Shown here: piece after piece, positions 1,221 to 27,138 of the stretch
How positions within the stretch are numbered: the first letter of the stretch is position 1
Layout of the letters: each line of letters begins with the position of its first letter
IMG/VR virus record: IMGVR_UViG_3300032270_001767
Span: 1 to 29,764 of that record
DNA from: a virus
Taxonomy: Duplodnaviria > Caudoviricetes
Reading direction: 5' to 3' (one strand)
DNA: 29,764 nt
Position numbers and translations under genes: made by a program
Notes under the pieces: model-generated
The model's input: the letters and a program-made list of their open reading frames with translations, nothing else
What the model was told of the DNA's origin: nothing
The model's database searches: none

Positions 1221-3599
1221 ATGGCTGTCGACGCTAATGCCAGATTAAAAGAAATTGTTGATTCGTATCTTGAAAAAGATGGCGGAACAATGGTTGATAC
1301 TGGCATTGTTGCTTCGCATTTGGCACAAATGAAACTTTTTGGTGTACGCCAAGGGGTTGAATTTTTTCCAGCACAAGACAACTTTGGTAACCAACGCAAA
1401 GATTTTATTGATCGTGTAGTCAAATACAATCAGATCGATACTCGCCTGGATTCCATATGGGATTACTTTCTTTGTGATGGCCAGGGATTATTTTATATTC
1501 GTCCTACCGAAAACAATTATCGCCTTTACTACTTCCGTAGGCATGAGTATCGGACTTATTACAATATTGACGGCGAGCTGGATGAAGTTGTAATCATCTA
1601 TAGCTACAAGGTCCGTCGTGGTTTTGGATATGAACAAGATGTTCAATCCAACAACATAACTGGCCCGGCCACAATGGGACAAGGTGCTAAGCGTTATATC
1701 CGCCTATCAATCAAGCAAAACGAAATTGAAGAAACCCACTCAGAAGGTGAAATGTCTTTTGAGCAACCTAATTACTCTTACGGCGGCAAAACAAAAACAT
1801 TCCGCAACACTCTCAAATTTATTCCCTGCGTTGAAATCTTTAATAATCCCAAGGGTTTTGCAACCGAAGGCATAGGTGAATTCGCTGCTGTTGCCAACCA
1901 CATTTGTACGCATGACCAAATGGTCCGTACCATGCGTAAGAACGTTCAGTTCTTTGGCAACCCAACTCTTCTCTCATCTCGTCCCAAGACAGACCTTATG
2001 GAGTCTGGTGGAGACAGTGTTGTCCAACGTCCTTCTATTGCCGCAAACTCAGGCTTCACTGGTCTTGGTCCCTTAAGCCAATCACGTTTCAAGGCTGATC
2101 CAATTAGTCGTGGTGTAGATGGTGAGATCAGGGTTCCGCGCGTCATTGCAAACCTGGAACCAAACGACCGAGTTGGCTACATCGTTCCAGATGCAATTAC
2201 TGGAGATCAAAATTCATTTGCTCGTCAATATAGGGAAGAAATTCGGACTGCCCTTGGTGGTGTAGATGAACTATCTATTTCCGCTGGCGTAACAGCAACT
2301 GAATACAAGTCATTATTTGGACGCGTTTCTGCAACTTCAAAGAAAAAAGCTACTTCAATTTATACTTACGGGATTTGTCGTTGCCTAGAACTTATTATTT
2401 TCCAGGAAGAACGCTTGTTCCGTGAGACGTTAGCGGCGGCAGCAGGAGTAGAGAAACCCGTGGAGCCTGATGAGAATGCTTCTCAAGAACAGGTTGATAT
2501 GTATGAAGAAGCAATGACTGGGTTTGAGGAGCAAGTCAAACGTCTAATGATGGCATGCCTCAAGACACAACAAATGCCGCCAGGTGTTTTGGGACTCATC
2601 CCTGATGGTGATGTAACGATGCAATGGCGTTGGCTTGGCCCTGTTTATGAAGACTCAACGCAAGACACACTAAACAACTCTATCGTGGTGAGGAACCTAC
2701 AAGAGTTAGGTGTTGATAGCATTGAAGCACTGAAATACCTATTCCCATCTAAAACAGATGAGGAAAGGGCCGGGATGCTCTCAGGCTTCCCGTTCAGGAT
2801 GGTGGGTGAATTGCAGAATGCTTATTCTCAATTCTCTCGCCTAGTGGGGGGCATGATGCAGACTCCTCACCCGCAATCACCGGATTTACCGATGGCTGCG
2901 GATCCGCGATTGGATTTAACTCCATATCTGTATCGAACCTTAGAAGCTTTACAAAAGGAGATGAGTTATGCAGGACGCTACCGTCCAATCGATCCCACAG
3001 ATGAGCCAAGCACCAGCCGTCGCCCCGAGCAGCTACGTGGTGGCAGCACCGCAAGCGGCCCCGGTCAGCTACCAGGTGGCGCCCCAGGCTTATCAAGTGG
3101 GTACCAGCTACCCCCAAGCAGTGCCCCAAGCGGCCCCCAGCTACCAATCAGCCCCTACTCAGTACGCCCCCCAATACCAACAGGCGGCGGAATCGGCGGG
3201 GAATCCCTGGGAGTCGGCGTTCAACAAGGTGGTGAGCGTACTGAGCGCTCCAGTTCAATCCCCGTTCCAGGGTCAACCATCAGCTCCGACGACAGCGTAT
3301 ACCCCGGCCAACTACGGGTACAACAGCCCCCAAGCTACGCAACAATCGGTAGCGCCGACCTCGTATCTCAACCAGGGATACTCGCCCAACTCTTCCCCAA
3401 CCTACTTGACGGGATCCTCGGCGGCGCAGGCGCACGCGGAAGTGGACAGCGCGGTAGCGGATTACTACAACCTAAGCGACCAAACTCGTCAGGTCCTGGG
3501 CGCGTTCGGGATGGAAGCTCCGGGAATTCTGAACCAGTACGCCCTCAACCTGGAAGGAATGCTGGACAGCGCGGTCGCATGGGGAAACAAAGCCGCTAA
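1221..3599 (+). CDS. Portal protein (SPP1 gp6-like) with a ~210-aa overprinted C-terminal extension
   Basis: IPCVEIFNN...GIGEF...HDQMVRTMRKNVQFFGNPTL resembles the SPP1-type portal stem/clip region. It lies upstream of the scaffold-like and capsid genes. Confidence 0.75.
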   Translation: MAVDANARLKEIVDSYLEKDGGTMVDTGIVASHLAQMKLFGVRQGVEFFPAQDNFGNQRKDFIDRVVKYNQIDTRLDSIWDYFLCDGQGLFYIRPTENNYRLYYFRRHEYRTYYNIDGELDEVVIIYSYKVRRGFGYEQDVQSNNITGPATMGQGAKRYIRLSIKQNEIEETHSEGEMSFEQPNYSYGGKTKTFRNTLKFIPCVEIFNNPKGFATEGIGEFAAVANHICTHDQMVRTMRKNVQFFGNPTLLSSRPKTDLMESGGDSVVQRPSIAANSGFTGLGPLSQSRFKADPISRGVDGEIRVPRVIANLEPNDRVGYIVPDAITGDQNSFARQYREEIRTALGGVDELSISAGVTATEYKSLFGRVSATSKKKATSIYTYGICRCLELIIFQEERLFRETLAAAAGVEKPVEPDENASQEQVDMYEEAMTGFEEQVKRLMMACLKTQQMPPGVLGLIPDGDVTMQWRWLGPVYEDSTQDTLNNSIVVRNLQELGVDSIEALKYLFPSKTDEERAGMLSGFPFRMVGELQNAYSQFSRLVGGMMQTPHPQSPDLPMAADPRLDLTPYLYRTLEALQKEMSYAGRYRPIDPTDEPSTSRRPEQLRGGSTASGPGQLPGGAPGLSSGYQLPPSSAPSGPQLPISPYSVRPPIPTGGGIGGESLGVGVQQGGERTERSSSIPVPGSTISSDDSVYPGQLRVQQPPSYATIGSADLVSQPGILAQLFPNLLDGILGGAGARGSGQRGSGLLQPKRPNSSGPGRVRDGSSGNSEPVRPQPGRNAGQRGRMGKQSR

Positions 3600-3960
3600 T
3601 GTGATTGGTGGTTATGCCAACTTCGCCGTTAATGAGCACCAGGAGAACCTGGCTTATAACGAGATTCTGACCAACCCCGATGTGCTTAGCGACTACACGC
3701 TGAAGTTCTTTGGTCCCGAAGGTCCGTACCCCGTGTACGAAAACGAGCAACAGCTTGAGACGCAAGGTTATCCCACTGCAGCGATCAATCCGCAGTACGG
3801 TAACTTCCCTGCTCCTCCTTCTGCCGCAGCTCTTCAGGCCCCTCAGAATTTCTGGGGCGGTTTCAGTGAGACCATGGCGCGTGATCCCCAGAATGCCTGG
3901 CGCATGCTGAACCACGCACAACCCAACACTGTTGCAAACAAACTGTTTGTAATGGAGTGA
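2968..3960 (+). CDS. Putative capsid scaffolding/assembly protein (Q/A/P/Y-rich)
   Basis: AAGGAG Shine-Dalgarno at 2955-2960, 7 nt before ATG 2968. Low-complexity N-terminus with a helical core. Located between portal and capsid. Function inferred from synteny. Confidence 0.65.
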   Translation: MQDATVQSIPQMSQAPAVAPSSYVVAAPQAAPVSYQVAPQAYQVGTSYPQAVPQAAPSYQSAPTQYAPQYQQAAESAGNPWESAFNKVVSVLSAPVQSPFQGQPSAPTTAYTPANYGYNSPQATQQSVAPTSYLNQGYSPNSSPTYLTGSSAAQAHAEVDSAVADYYNLSDQTRQVLGAFGMEAPGILNQYALNLEGMLDSAVAWGNKAANVIGGYANFAVNEHQENLAYNEILTNPDVLSDYTLKFFGPEGPYPVYENEQQLETQGYPTAAINPQYGNFPAPPSAAALQAPQNFWGGFSETMARDPQNAWRMLNHAQPNTVANKLFVME

Positions 3961-3964
3961 CGCC

Positions 3965-4519
3965 ATGAGAACTCCTCTTGGTAGCACACGACCTTTACTT
4001 GCGTACGGGCTTCCCGCTGCCGCCGGTTTGGCGGTTGGTGGAGCCCTTGCTGGACAAGGAGAAGATAGTGGTACTGCCGCTTTAGGTGGTATGGCCGCTG
4101 CTTTAGGTGCCAGGGGTGGCCTTGGTGCTGCTCGCCTTGCCGGACGTTATGCCCCGGTTGTTGGCGAGATTATGCAAAAGGGTATTACGCCAGTTGGTAA
4201 AGCTGTGCGTGAAGGAATAGGATCCGTACCCCAAGGCGGCATCCGCGATAGAGCCCTTAGAGGTATGCGTGGCGGCCTTGTAAATGCATATCGTTCTGCC
4301 GGTAATATTCCTGCTTCTGCTGTTCAAAAGGCAGCCGCAGGTTTAGCTGTTCCCGGTGCCGCTGCTCTTGCGGGCTTAGGTGGCGTTGCAGCTGGTATGG
4401 TCCCTGGAGCACTTGGAGTCCCTGGTTTCCAACAACAATCTGTTGTGGATCCCGAATCTTACGGCTCCAGTAATTCATATGGAGCTGTTTATAAACAAAC
4501 GACTCCTCAGTACTACTGA
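3965..4519 (+). CDS. Gly/Ala-rich hydrophobic protein, probably virion-associated
   Basis: Starts 4 nt after the upstream stop with GGAG upstream. Three GxxxG-rich hydrophobic stretches. Confidence 0.7.
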   Translation: MRTPLGSTRPLLAYGLPAAAGLAVGGALAGQGEDSGTAALGGMAAALGARGGLGAARLAGRYAPVVGEIMQKGITPVGKAVREGIGSVPQGGIRDRALRGMRGGLVNAYRSAGNIPASAVQKAAAGLAVPGAAALAGLGGVAAGMVPGALGVPGFQQQSVVDPESYGSSNSYGAVYKQTTPQYY

Positions 4520-4550
4520 TAAAAATTACGGCCTGTTAAAATTTGTAGTA

Positions 4551-4619: not shown

Positions 4620-5786
4620 GTGTTTATTGATAACGATTTTCCGAAAATCCTAGGGGCCGAACTCTATCGTCCCCACCCTGCTTACATTGCCGAGATGGCG
4701 GTTGAGCCCGTGGTTGTCCACGACTTCACCCGTCAGCCCGGTCAAACCGTACAGCTGGACCGCTACAAGTTTTGGGGTACTCCTGGTACCAAGGACAGCC
4801 GCGAGCGTATCTCCGACCAGACTATTGGTACTGCCAATAGCCGTAACATCACCAAGGAGAAAGTCCTGGTGGTGCTTAAAGAATACACCGGTCCTGCGGA
4901 CCCCGGCGATCCGACCCAGCCTTCGACCTTCAAGATTGCCCGCGAAACCCTGATCACTGCTCAGCGTCTGCTGCTTGATAGTGGCAACCTGAACATGTTC
5001 CACCAGTCCATCGGTAGTCTGACGCTGCTTGATGACTATCGCCGGTGGCGTGACCGCGTCTTCATTGACGAGCTTGCCAAAGCCGAAGCCAATGGTGCCG
5101 CTTCAACCACTCAAGGCGGTTACTATTTTGCTGGTGCCAAGACCAAGAATGCTTCTGGTCAAATCACCTATACCTCTACTGAGTACACCGCTGACCTTCA
5201 GCAGTTCTCTGTTCGCACCGACCTTCTGACCGTTGTCAAGGACCTGCGTAAGCGTAACGTGCCGACCTACTCCGATGGTCTGTATCGTTGCCTTTGCGAT
5301 CCTACGTTCATGATGCACCTGCGTCGTGACCCCGACTTCCGTGAGATCGCTCGTTACTCTGGTAATCCTGGTCAAGGCATGTACATGGGTAACCCCATGC
5401 TGCCTAACAACGCCAGCTTCTTCCAGGGTCCTCAAGCTGGTCAAGGCTACTTCCTGGCCGGTGAACCCGTCATGCCTACCGGCGTGCAGTTCGAAGGTGT
5501 TAAATTCTTCGAATCAACCAACTTCCCGACCAAAACCGTCACCACTTCCTTTGCTGGTACTGGCGGCACCTACTCTGCCCAAGAAGTTGCTCAAGGTTAC
5601 TTCTTTGGTCCCCAGGCAGTTGGCGTTGGTATCGGCGGCCCGAACGCTCAGGTCCTCATCAACAACAACGATGACTTCAGCCGTTTCATCATCTTGATCT
5701 GGCAACTGTACGCTGGTTTTGATATCCTTAACAAGGACTTTGTTACCACCGCTTACAGCTATGTCTCTGATGATGGCACCATCTGA
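4620..5786 (+). CDS. Major capsid protein (HK97 fold expected)
   Basis: 388 aa with GGAGGA SD before the GTG. Strong C/T-ending codon bias of a highly expressed gene. QPGQTVQL, LRKRNVP...YRCLCDP, G-VQFEGVKFFES and DDFSR...W motifs fit capsid proteins. Synteny with portal and scaffold. Confidence 0.85.
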   Translation: MFIDNDFPKILGAELYRPHPAYIAEMAVEPVVVHDFTRQPGQTVQLDRYKFWGTPGTKDSRERISDQTIGTANSRNITKEKVLVVLKEYTGPADPGDPTQPSTFKIARETLITAQRLLLDSGNLNMFHQSIGSLTLLDDYRRWRDRVFIDELAKAEANGAASTTQGGYYFAGAKTKNASGQITYTSTEYTADLQQFSVRTDLLTVVKDLRKRNVPTYSDGLYRCLCDPTFMMHLRRDPDFREIARYSGNPGQGMYMGNPMLPNNASFFQGPQAGQGYFLAGEPVMPTGVQFEGVKFFESTNFPTKTVTTSFAGTGGTYSAQEVAQGYFFGPQAVGVGIGGPNAQVLINNNDDFSRFIILIWQLYAGFDILNKDFVTTAYSYVSDDGTI

Positions 5787-6655: not shown

Positions 6656-7066
6656 ATGCTTTACCAGCACAAAAAAACTGGCGCACGCGTCAAAATCGTA
6701 AGCGAGTGGGATAACGGCGATTGGTTCATGGTCGAAGATCAAGACGGTCGCCTTTACACTGCATACAAAACTGAGTTAGCTCCCGACCAGGAAGCAACTA
6801 AAAAAGTACAAACACTTCAAGTAAAAGACAAGGCTGCCAAGGAAGAGCCTCGGTCGTTCCCCCCAGATCAACGACTTAATGTCAACTCTGCTACTGCGCA
6901 GATGCTTGCAGATCACATCAAAGGCATTGGCCTTAAAACTGCTCGTGAGATCAAGGATCTTCAGATGTCTTTATCGGGTGAAAGATTTCACTCTCTTGAG
7001 CAGTTAAAACAAATTAAACGAGTAGATTGGGAAGCAGTCCTGGCTGCAGATCTGGTACGAGTTTAA
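6656..7066 (+). CDS. Helix-hairpin-helix (ComEA-like) DNA-binding protein with a small N-terminal beta domain
   Basis: LNVNSATAQML...IKGIGLKTAREI...RFHSLEQLKQI is the ComEA/HHH_3 pattern. Confidence 0.8.
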   Translation: MLYQHKKTGARVKIVSEWDNGDWFMVEDQDGRLYTAYKTELAPDQEATKKVQTLQVKDKAAKEEPRSFPPDQRLNVNSATAQMLADHIKGIGLKTAREIKDLQMSLSGERFHSLEQLKQIKRVDWEAVLAADLVRV

Positions 7067-18906: not shown

Positions 18907-19494
18907 TCAAACCTGAGAGAATACAATTTCTTTCTTTTGATCTTGATACTTGCCTTTTCGGTCTTGGTAAGACACCCGGCAATCTTCACCTTTGTAAAAC
19001 AACAGTTGTGTAATACCCTCGTCAGCATAAATACGATTAAACAAACCAGTGCAATTGCTAATTTCCAACGTAAGGTAGCCCTCCCAACCGGCTTCTGCTG
19101 GTGTGATATTTACCAAGATACCTGAACGTGCATACGTAGATTTGCCAACGGCAACTACAGTCACATTCCTGGGAAGCTTAATGCGTTCTTGTGCAACGCC
19201 AAGACAATACCCATAAGGAGGCAAAATAAAATACTGTCCTTTTTCATCTTCTAGTAATTCGGCATTTGTGAGGATATCCTTATCAAAGTCTTTGGGATCA
19301 CAATCACCTTTTTGAATTCGGCCAAAAACTAAACATTGCTTGGGAGACAGTCGGATATCGTATCCGTAAGAGCTGAGTCCATAGCTAAGAATACGGCGAC
19401 CATCTGTTTCACTCACCAACTTATCCTGGAACGGAGAGATCATTTCCTCCGTTTCGGCAAGGTGTTGAATTTCCCAGTCGCAGAGGAGAGCCAT
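18907..19494 (-). CDS. dcd: dCTP deaminase
   Basis: SYGLSSYGYDIRL, GKSTYARSG, TPAEAGWEG.LTLE, EGITQLLF and SYQDRKGKYQ.Q motifs. Confidence 0.97.
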   Translation of the reverse strand: MALLCDWEIQHLAETEEMISPFQDKLVSETDGRRILSYGLSSYGYDIRLSPKQCLVFGRIQKGDCDPKDFDKDILTNAELLEDEKGQYFILPPYGYCLGVAQERIKLPRNVTVVAVGKSTYARSGILVNITPAEAGWEGYLTLEISNCTGLFNRIYADEGITQLLFYKGEDCRVSYQDRKGKYQDQKKEIVFSQV

Positions 19495-25664: not shown

Positions 25665-26339
25665 ATGTCAACGTTTCTTGATGCCGCCCAGGCTACAGAC
25701 AAAGGCAACCCCTTGGAGCACCAGGACAAAGCTTGGGCGTATGCCTGGGGGTTGTTATCAACTGAGCAACAGATTGAGTTTTTAAAACAATTCAGGAACT
25801 CCTCGGATACTGCAACAAAACTTAACAATCCGTTAGCTGTTCAGTACATGAGCCAGCGGGATAATTACCGCGATGCTAACAGGACTTGTTTTAGCTCTAG
25901 CTGTGCCATGCTCCTGAAGTTCCTTAAGCCTGGCAGCATTAAAAATGATGATGACTACATCAAAGTAGTCTTTCATTACGGTGACACAACCCAAAGTGCT
26001 ACTCAAATTGCAACCCTAAAGCACTTTGGACTGCCCGTTAAATTTGTAACAAATGGTGATCGTGCTCTTATTAAAAAACAAATTGATTCGGGTAAGCCCG
26101 TACCAGTAGGATTCCTACATCATGGCCCAGTAAGTCAACCATCTGGTGGTGGGCACTGGCTTTGTATTATTGGTTATGACGACAAAGGCTACTGGGTAAA
26201 CGACCCCTGGGGGGAAATGTCCTTAGTTAGCGGTACCTATCCAAGTACCGATGGTGCCAAAAAACACTACAGTTACAAAAATTTTGAACCCCGCTGGATG
26301 GTTGATGGGCCGTCAACGGGGTGGTGTATTGTCGCTTAA
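25665..26339 (+). CDS. C39-like cysteine peptidase (putative endolysin)
   Basis: YMSQRDN...TCFSSSCAM, GHWLCIIGYD and VNDPWG give the Gln/Cys/His/Asp set. Confidence 0.88.
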   Translation: MSTFLDAAQATDKGNPLEHQDKAWAYAWGLLSTEQQIEFLKQFRNSSDTATKLNNPLAVQYMSQRDNYRDANRTCFSSSCAMLLKFLKPGSIKNDDDYIKVVFHYGDTTQSATQIATLKHFGLPVKFVTNGDRALIKKQIDSGKPVPVGFLHHGPVSQPSGGGHWLCIIGYDDKGYWVNDPWGEMSLVSGTYPSTDGAKKHYSYKNFEPRWMVDGPSTGWCIVA

Positions 26340-26341
26340 GA

Positions 26342-26437
26342 TCAGCGTTGCTTGGTCTTGGCAGTAACCAAAGCAAGAAATTCAATCACTTTGTAAAACT
26401 TCCTTACAAATGTGTCGTCCTTAGGGCTGTTGGTCAG
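26342..26437 (-). pseudogene. 3' remnant of a holin-like paralog
   Basis: Translates as LTNSPKDDTFVRKFYKVIEFLALVTAKTKQR*, which aligns with the C-terminal half of 27215..27382. It has no start codon, and an in-frame stop lies a few codons upstream. Confidence 0.8.
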
Positions 26438-27138
26438 ATATTTTTGTTTAAATATTCAATTGCTTTTGCCAAGCTAGTTGTATTTTCCAAAAATAATCCT
26501 ATTCCTGTATTGCAACGGCTACATAAAAGTCCTCTAATTTTTTTGGTTCCGTGTATATGATCTACGCATAAACGTCCGCCTTTGGAAACGCCAACAGCAG
26601 GCGCAATGTCAACATGTATCTCACAAATAGCGCATTTATGATTTTGTTTTTCAAGAAGAAAATCGTATTGCTCAAGCGTTAAGTCATATTTTTTTAAATT
26701 TCCCTTACGTATTCTTTCTTTATAGATTGTTTTGTTTTTATTGCTGAGACATTCATTGCACCAGCTACCAACTTTCCCAATGCGTTTACCATTGGGATCT
26801 GGGGCAAAAGAATTAAAAGATTTTACGACTCCACAAGAGCCACATATTTTTTCATTATTTTTTGCTAATAAATGTTCTTGCATGTATCTTTTTTCTGCTC
26901 TTTCGTTGGCCGCACATTTGGCGCAACCTTTTCCAGCTAAATGGTTTGTCCCTAATTGTTGAAATGGGCCACAGGTAGGACAAATTATTTCAACATATTT
27001 TTGTTGTGAAACAAAAGTTTGTAAAACAGAGTCGTATAGGTAGCGTTCTCCGTGAATTTCTTTAGCTTTTGTTATAAAATACAAAGCTCGCGTTTCCCTG
27101 GAAGCGGCTTTAATAAATTGTTTGTTAGAATTTTTCAT
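26434..27138 (-). CDS. Free-standing endonuclease VII-family (putative homing) endonuclease with two N-terminal Zn modules
   Basis: KYDLTLEQY...QNHKCAIC...LCVDHIH.T.KIRGLLCSRCNTGIG...AIEYL. N-terminal FI.KAKEIHG.RY.Y...IICP...HL.GKGC.KC and CxxC...CxxC. Visibly AT-rich. Confidence 0.92.
   Translation of the reverse strand: MKNSNKQFIKAASRETRALYFITKAKEIHGERYLYDSVLQTFVSQQKYVEIICPTCGPFQQLGTNHLAGKGCAKCAANERAEKRYMQEHLLAKNNEKICGSCGVVKSFNSFAPDPNGKRIGKVGSWCNECLSNKNKTIYKERIRKGNLKKYDLTLEQYDFLLEKQNHKCAICEIHVDIAPAVGVSKGGRLCVDHIHGTKKIRGLLCSRCNTGIGLFLENTTSLAKAIEYLNKNI

Follow-up and report, generated by a model that had tools for sequence, protein, structure and literature searches.

The window analysed here is a 29,764-nt stretch of a tailed virus (Duplodnaviria; Caudoviricetes), an S-EIV1-like cyanophage, positions 1 to 29,764 of the IMG/VR record IMGVR_UViG_3300032270_001767, in which the last 632 nucleotides (nt) of a portal gene are also the first 632 nt of a scaffold-like gene. 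Comparison with related loci demonstrates purifying selection on both frames of this overlap and indicates that it is real, old and family-wide, between two head genes. The best overall explanation, to which we assign a probability of roughly 0.65, is that both frames are translated and that the portal tail serves as a motif-bearing disordered arm in head assembly. Translation of both frames, taken by itself, is very probable given the substitution patterns described below. The features concerned are as follows.

1221-3599, plus strand: portal gene, 792 amino acids (aa), with a folded core of approximately residues 1-590 and a 210-aa C-terminal extension (the tail)
2968-3960, plus strand: scaffold-like gene, 330 aa, in the +1 frame relative to the portal gene (the second frame)
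2968-3599, plus strand: dual-coding overlap, 632 nt, with both open reading frames (ORFs) open
2955-2970, plus strand: start signal of the second gene, comprising an AAGGAG Shine-Dalgarno sequence (2955-2960), a 7-nt spacer and ATG at 2968, inside portal codons K-E-M-S-Y-A

Conservation of the overlap among relatives

An initial annotation made from the window's letters had proposed that the portal frame stays open for about 210 codons past the start of the second gene, and the ORF coordinates confirm this; the overlap encodes the N-terminal two thirds of the scaffold-like protein. A portal-frame stop requires a T-ending second-frame codon before AA, AG or GA, and none of the 34 such stop-risk junctions in the overlap is preceded by T, compared with 8 of 29 downstream; the annotation was right that none follows a T, but its count of about 30 was low. 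Second-frame third positions are strongly C/G, as it had stated (70% G/C, 10% T), the overlap is G+C-rich, and the portal-frame stops that it listed at 3597, 3630, 3633 and 3657 are all present, together with five at later positions. With the second protein held fixed, a stop-free portal frame is, as presumed, unlikely by chance (log10 P of -4.7 with the codon usage of the capsid gene and -8.0 with that of the scaffold-like gene's 3' part). Because the value rises to between -1.6 and -2.1 when the overlap's own codon usage is applied, the window by itself is modest evidence, suggestive but not decisive, and it is the relatives that carry the case. Third-frame and antisense ORFs in the region were stop-filled across 46 representatives.

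Two sets of close relatives were scored. Among 80 loci found via the portal core, the portal stop was visible in 71 (eight others are cut off by the contig end, and one does not extend to the junction), and the portal frame runs 182-222 codons past the junction in 70 of these; the sole exception, L012, has a TAG after 61 codons, at most 12 nt from the contig end. Another 80 loci were found via the 3' part of the scaffold-like gene, some on contigs shared with the first set, and the frame is open for 172-212 codons in all 74 that contain the junction, six being unscored because the contig begins too late. Both sets together hold 116 distinct complete overlaps with a median of 200 codons (L012, with its second gene cut, was left out), and the position of the portal stop varies by approximately 50 codons in this close clade. 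Among the matches listed, 117 of 120 portal homologues are 749-795 aa long, and P0147, examined as an apparent exception, has a frameshifted tail. Close homologues do not stop at residues 585-600, the alternative that the initial annotation had raised.

Distant relatives came from a profile-free search of 50% cluster representatives that reached portals of approximately 30% identity, with DNA for five groups. Most portals down to this identity carry long tails. Among the matches listed, 125 of 128 distinct portals of 31%-54% identity have a +1 frame that has been open for 269-572 nt when it reaches the portal stop and continues intact past it; the three exceptions are a contig that ends at the portal stop (L164), a broken portal core (L290) and an indel shifting both frames (L232). 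Seventeen of the 19 most divergent loci have a +1 ORF with its first ATG 44-542 nt before the portal stop, and the other two (L344 and L346) have premature stops. Such exceptional loci may be assembly errors. The portal frame stays open in close and distant loci alike, which is the outcome of the comparison with related genomes that the initial annotation had suggested as a check.

Selection and probable expression of the two frames

The overlap holds the following elements.

2967-3008, plus strand: portal-frame junction block YAGRYRPIDPTDEP; the portal frame dominates
3019-3129, plus strand: second-frame motifs VAPSSYV and YQVGTSYPQAVPQ; the second frame dominates
3202-3270, plus strand: second-frame NPWESAFNKVV helix (residues 80-92) and APVQSPFQ; omega 0.01
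3258-3281, plus strand: portal-frame IPVPGSTI, residues 680-687, the tail's best conserved element
3351-3407, plus strand: portal-frame SADLVSQPGILAQLFPNLL motif, a predicted short amphipathic helix; portal omega 0.07 over 3281-3405
3408-3599, plus strand: basic tail end, unconstrained in sequence; open, without Cys and Trp, and net positive

The two frames thus alternate, a motif in one being matched mostly by linker in the other. Parsimony counts of substitutions by codon position in 36 representatives place the variable position at portal wobble sites over 2968-3012 and 3328-3417, and at second-frame wobble sites over approximately 3013-3130 and 3463-3597. A simplified OLGenie-type estimate (46 representatives, 1,035 non-independent pairs, block bootstrap) gave an omega of 0.20 (0.11-0.37) for the portal frame and 0.09 (0.05-0.14) for the second frame, compared with 1.15 and 0.79, respectively, where each frame is non-coding. 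The first five blocks of the overlap have portal-frame omegas of 0.07-0.23, and several blocks constrain both frames simultaneously. Random recoding of either protein recreates the other frame's motifs, which had been preselected as conserved, in only 0.5%-15% of trials, so that the motifs of neither frame are forced by the other's protein.

Avoidance of particular codons in the portal frame points the same way. In close loci, a T creating a portal-frame stop occurs at 0 of 1,541 junctions, compared with 27% downstream, and a T creating a portal-frame Cys at 0 of 2,132, compared with 48% downstream. The corresponding counts are 0/2,130 and 0/3,854 in 105 loci at 44%-60% identity and 0/279 and 0/193 in 13 loci at 29%-44% identity, 8 of 126 loci having been dropped from the distant groups for a short downstream part or an indel. 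These junctions and pairs share ancestry and are not independent events; the pattern repeats in three deep groups. T is avoided solely where a stop, Cys or Trp would arise in the portal frame, and Tyr codons, likewise one step from a stop, are not avoided. Together with the omega values and alternating blocks, this upholds the proposal that selection keeps both frames open.

The last 63 portal codons differ from the rest, with an omega of 1.44 and no amino-acid constraint. An omega near 1 there, and stop positions scattered over some 50 codons, would suit a portal frame kept open only for regulation, through translational coupling or the portal:scaffold ratio, with a tail sequence of no protein function. 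We consider this very improbable, given the low portal-frame omega of the first five blocks, the absolute exclusion of Cys and the conservation of motifs at 30%-50% core identity. None of the 329 stop-risk junctions in the 29 codons that follow LFP is a stop.

Constraint at the nucleotide level, from RNA structure or base composition, might also mimic dual coding. The overlap's G+C richness would be compatible with this, as would the consensus folding of 3100-3279, which lies below most codon shuffles (1/60 and 2/60 as low, with five segments tested). Nonetheless, compensatory pairs are absent from the tested segments, substitutions follow codon position in a frame-specific and alternating manner, and T avoidance is confined to would-be portal-frame stops, Cys and Trp, all of which makes this the least probable of the explanations considered. 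As a conserved RNA structure, 3100-3279 was set aside as a weak signal without compensatory pairs, and 2740-2919 as folding no better than codon shuffles (14/60 and 6/60 as low).

The start signal of the second gene is conserved as well. CAAAAGGAGATGAGYTATGC is invariant in 81/81 and 74/74 close loci, and portal cores favour AAA, GAA and TCN codons, unlike the codons fixed at the junction. Among 126 distant junctions, the start is ATG in 70, GTG one codon later in 47 and ATG one codon later in 1, the remainder having another arrangement (5) or an unmatched motif (3). Where a junction Tyr codon precedes G, it is TAT in 70 of 71 cases, compared with 426 of 913 in portal cores. This codon bias indicates that the Shine-Dalgarno sequence and start codon are under selection and kept at synonymous sites. 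In one clade (L244, L257, L264 and related loci) the TAT-G start is replaced by a GTG one codon later with a perfect AAGGAG ahead of it; by this comparison, the start site has moved while the overlap was retained.

We propose that translation of the portal gene would continue to 3599 and that a separate set of ribosomes would initiate at the internal Shine-Dalgarno sequence and ATG at 2968. An internal promoter possibly assists in the close clade, which would suit a higher scaffold copy number. One candidate was found.

2714-2722, plus strand: candidate extended -10 promoter TG-A-TAGCAT, inside the portal gene and approximately 250 nt upstream of the second gene; close clade only

This sequence is kept at the internal site in 45 of 46 close representatives and in 1 of 117 distant loci. 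The pattern TGnTAnnAT also occurs upstream of the capsid gene (4534-4542) in 34 of 35 representatives and upstream of the portal gene (1188-1196) in 33 of 45, a possible late-promoter consensus, but it is not enriched in the window (12 sites, 16.4 expected), and a sigma-70 consensus scan gave nothing above chance (5 sites, 5.2 expected). Four metatranscriptomes contain, in small shares (0.06-0.11), short contigs of the window phage or its relatives, from which strand, start and frame cannot be read. The starts of RNA contigs in two studies, at 2742 and 2751, hint weakly at an internal promoter but are confounded by conservation; where the portal body lacks coverage, lower nucleotide conservation may be the cause. 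Synonymous substitution in the close clade approximately halves over the last 100 portal-core codons (2661-2966), a stretch that includes the candidate -10 element; RNA structure was not supported as a reason for this constraint.

That halving, with the fairly fixed codons of a Val-Gly-Gly-Met-Met stretch, could be read as a sign that the portal-frame motifs belong to a separate product, made by frameshifting or from an in-frame start (GTG GGG GGC ATG ATG, 2844-2858). Yet constraint is unbroken from the core through the junction, core and tail have no intervening stop, and no conserved slippery heptamer precedes the motifs in the second frame, the only common one lying at the very end. We regard a separate product as very unlikely, and programmed frameshifting was rejected as a candidate, since no suitable conserved slippery site was found.

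The two proteins and the origin of the tail

Structure prediction shows that the 1221-3599 product has a portal fold, bearing out the identity first given to this ORF. The AlphaFold model has a predicted template modelling score of 0.69 and a confident core (predicted local distance difference test, pLDDT, mostly 80-97), and the Foldseek PDB matches listed are all phage portal or portal-tail entries (80alpha, SPP1, T7 and others; best E 6e-12). ESM features of the ORF score 0.96 to portal clusters. The PHROGs family, phrog_20475, is labelled 'virion structural protein' and its profile takes in the tail, and the sole tblastn match in 50,697 phage records is Synechococcus phage S-EIV1 (77.5%). 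In S-EIV1 a terminase lies approximately 0.9 kb upstream of the portal gene and the capsid gene lies downstream; the window starts downstream of any terminase gene.

The second protein is quite probably a scaffolding protein, judging from its position and architecture. Its gene sits between the portal and capsid genes in the window; in L349 and L350, two outgroup loci, it is the immediate neighbour of the capsid gene. The protein is acidic (net charge -15), and a low-confidence model predicts a low-complexity N-terminal region of 150 aa with one helix (80-92), a helix of approximately 75 residues (171-247) and a C-terminal helix-turn-helix (295-325).

The tail was described initially as long and disordered with one amphipathic helix. 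Long predicted disorder is what we find: the first 144 tail residues are 65% P/G/S/Q/A/T and the AlphaFold tail is mostly below pLDDT 50. A single helix, by contrast, understates the number of motifs, the consensus being LP.PGST, DL..QP..L.QLFP and then a basic end, with P-x-P-G-S-T the best conserved. L/I-P-x-P-G-S-T-V occurs in 66 of 90 long tails, compared with 16 in shuffles (P681 93%, G684 91%), and D-L..P..L..LFP in 48 of 90, compared with 7. Of the proposed helix segment, ILAQLFPNLL is conserved but the DGILGG that follows is not. A basic end, with at least four R/K in the last 20 residues, is present in 63 of 90 long tails, and the tail end carries a net charge of +5 to +12 in 116 of 116 close sequences. 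The tail motifs persist at 30%-50% portal-core identity. The sole tail stretch modelled confidently is residues 671-690 (pLDDT 80-83), with beta-bridges in the model.

The reading we favour is that the tail docks on the portal core and has a role in head assembly, although we give it only about even odds. In such a mechanism, a disordered arm tethered to the portal would act while heads nucleate: P-x-P-G-S-T would hold it against the portal body, the QLFP helix would engage scaffold or coat, and contacts with acidic scaffold or DNA would fall to the basic end. For P22, the abstracts of two reports (PMC12005531, PMC13386823) describe scaffold binding as the driver of both the formation of portal rings and their incorporation. 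A more speculative version, which we consider doubtful, is that the tail is a de novo tethered arm binding the scaffold segment encoded by the same nucleotides. If so, two interacting head-nucleation surfaces would lie on one DNA stretch, inseparable by recombination, and would have been kept since the cores were at approximately 30% identity.

The tail might instead act after assembly, lining the portal crown inside the head and helping to hold, order or eject DNA or ejection proteins, a role of the kind suggested for the C-terminal barrel of P22. A net positive end in all 116 close sequences, at least four R/K in the last 20 residues in 63 of 90 long tails, and a tail that continues from the core's last helix all fit such a role, and the P22 C-terminal barrel extends inwards (PMC4992974, in the portion available). 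Its weaknesses are that the basic end is unconstrained in sequence and weak in the most distant clades, that Arg richness is partly frame-driven (14.5% R/K in the same frame downstream, 22% in the tail), and that the tail is predicted to be disordered, not helical. On balance we consider a post-assembly role unlikely, though less so than the other alternatives to an assembly arm.

In a portal-core tree of 55 rows, with the 7 rows of the most distant group as the root, the long-tailed ingroup has a branch support of 100 and short-tailed forms are nested under several well-supported branches; a 116-row FastTree agrees. A constraint separating every long tail, as a single clade, from every short tail was rejected (approximately unbiased test, p-AU 0.0002), the grouping having been defined after a first tree was viewed. 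The trees thus favour a single tail origin with later losses. In L341, L343, L352, L360, L362 and L363, the portal tail is secondarily shortened, with an overlap of 65-180 nt and the N-terminus of the second gene kept; these loci are natural deletion mutants for comparison.

Lineages with short tails retain the low-complexity N-terminal region of the second gene. Outgroup portals (n = 10) have tails of 6-70 aa without the motif, and in the outgroup loci with DNA (n = 2) the next gene is present, starts inside the portal end and has a low-complexity N-terminus. Retention of this N-terminus favours portal read-through into an existing gene, so that the tail was probably overprinted on a pre-existing scaffold gene. 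It would have arisen once, when the portal stop codon was lost into a scaffold gene already starting inside the portal end, and would later have acquired its own motifs. The reverse direction, an older tail with the scaffold N-terminus overprinted via gain of an upstream start, could claim that portal-frame motifs are conserved as deeply as any second-frame motif and that portal-frame codon usage correlates slightly better with all sampled window genes (0.14 versus -0.10 for the second frame). We consider it unlikely: in the outgroup the tails are short and without the motif, yet the next gene already begins inside the portal end; short-tail lineages keep the second-gene N-terminus; and the second frame is closer to highly expressed genes (0.49 versus 0.36).

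Several observations weigh against a translated assembly arm overprinted on a scaffold gene. The docking reading draws on pLDDT and beta-bridges only, the last 63 portal codons show no constraint, and the junction counts and sequence pairs share ancestry. Sixteen of 106 ingroup portals have tails shorter than 80 aa, and the tail is therefore dispensable in some lineages. Outgroup DNA is limited to two loci, one of them with a 215-nt overlap, and the correlation with all sampled window genes leaves direction undecided by codon usage. The scaffold-like model has a mean pLDDT of 42, and profile, atlas and fold searches gave no scaffold homologue or named match for the protein; fold searches with this model returned only the S-EIV1-sized homologue and generic helices, and the absence of fold matches is uninformative because the model is too poor.

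Comparable overlaps and neighbouring genes

Synechococcus phage S-EIV1 (KJ410740; AHV82224.1, AHV82225.1) shares the arrangement, with a 767-aa tailed portal, a 325-aa +1 ORF and an overlap of approximately 550 nt. Its GenBank record, by contrast, labels both coding sequences 'hypothetical' and places the start of the second gene downstream of the portal stop, which leaves only its final 133 aa annotated; the overlap is therefore unrecorded, and correction of the annotation restores a gene truncated by 60% in the reference record. The same record lacks the whole S-EIV1 major capsid gene (L081 7323-8474, 383 aa, GTG start, 87% to that of the window), in place of which stand a minus-strand ORF and a 3' fragment.

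In phiX174 (Microviridae), the extension of gene A across gene B, whose product we take to be an internal scaffolding protein, is the closest precedent. The C-terminal region of gene A is judged to be a de novo extension, and A overlaps B in another frame, according to the available part of a review (PMC8227390). However, phiX174 is a 5.4-kb single-stranded DNA phage, tightly limited in genome size, and its A protein serves replication. In the present case the two partners are head proteins of a tailed double-stranded DNA lineage (S-EIV1, 79 kb), and their genes overlap at the ends, with neither nested in the other. Two-component spanins (lambda Rz/Rz1, embedded; P2-, T5- and Jersey-type, overlapped) likewise show same-strand, out-of-frame overlap of partner genes, are overlooked by gene callers and may have arisen through stop-codon loss, one route suggested in the accessible text of PMC6139136. 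Those, unlike the present genes, are lysis genes with overlaps of 70-155 bp and a diverging i-spanin end (same portion of PMC6139136). Here the overlap is 632 nt and motifs are conserved in both frames.

Segregated (asymmetric) overlapping genes, of which we take HIV tat/rev to be an example, resemble this pair in another respect. They combine alternating constrained and permissive blocks with disorder-rich products, but the cases in the consulted part of the review are mainly from small eukaryotic viruses (PMC8227390), and here several blocks constrain both frames. P22 also has a long C-terminal portal extension (PMC4992974), and the C-terminal helix-turn-helix of its scaffold binds coat while the scaffold contacts the portal (PMC12005531, PMC13386823), as far as the available portions of these sources go. 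The P22 barrel is helical, unlike the tail predicted here, and the P22 portal and scaffold abstracts do not mention a long gene overlap.

Among annotated viral overlaps, 84% are shorter than 50 nt (PMC7017920, part seen), and the median for DNA viruses is approximately 16 nt (PMC8903798, part seen), figures to be read with the bias of gene callers against long overlaps in mind. The overlap described here is unusually long and old for a tailed phage. Literature searches on portal/scaffold overlaps and on S-EIV1 surfaced no description, the primary S-EIV1 paper being outside their coverage, and in the main-text passages, not supplements, of a preprint on a related marine lineage (10.1101/325100) 'overlap' refers to genome ends only. 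An overlap of 270-630 nt between two core head genes, kept across portals of approximately 30% identity without an obvious size squeeze, is a rare natural experiment. Hundreds of sequences with varied overlap lengths and repeated losses allow tests of how dual-coding constraint is shared and how a new protein region gains function. The analysis also predicts a previously undescribed portal element, the P-x-P-G-S-T arm, that cryo-electron microscopy of cultured S-EIV1 could see.

The gene context of the overlap includes the following.

4620-5786, plus strand: major capsid protein gene (phrog_1357, E 3e-16)

Between the scaffold-like and capsid genes, 3965-4519 holds a 184-aa Gly/Ala-rich hydrophobic ORF with no family match; distant lineages have unrelated-looking Gln/Asn/Ala-rich ORFs in the equivalent place. 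Upstream of the portal gene, the ORF at 122-763 contains an HExxH sequence (LLHEAGH), which we read as a metalloprotease motif; it has no Pfam match, and its size is not among the annotated S-EIV1 sizes at the same position. Elsewhere in the window, Pfam matches were obtained to a helix-hairpin-helix (6656-7066, slightly below the cut-off), phage lysozyme (16841-17455), a dCTP deaminase-like protein (18907-19494), a peptidase C39-like protein (25665-26339) and endonuclease VII (26434-27138).

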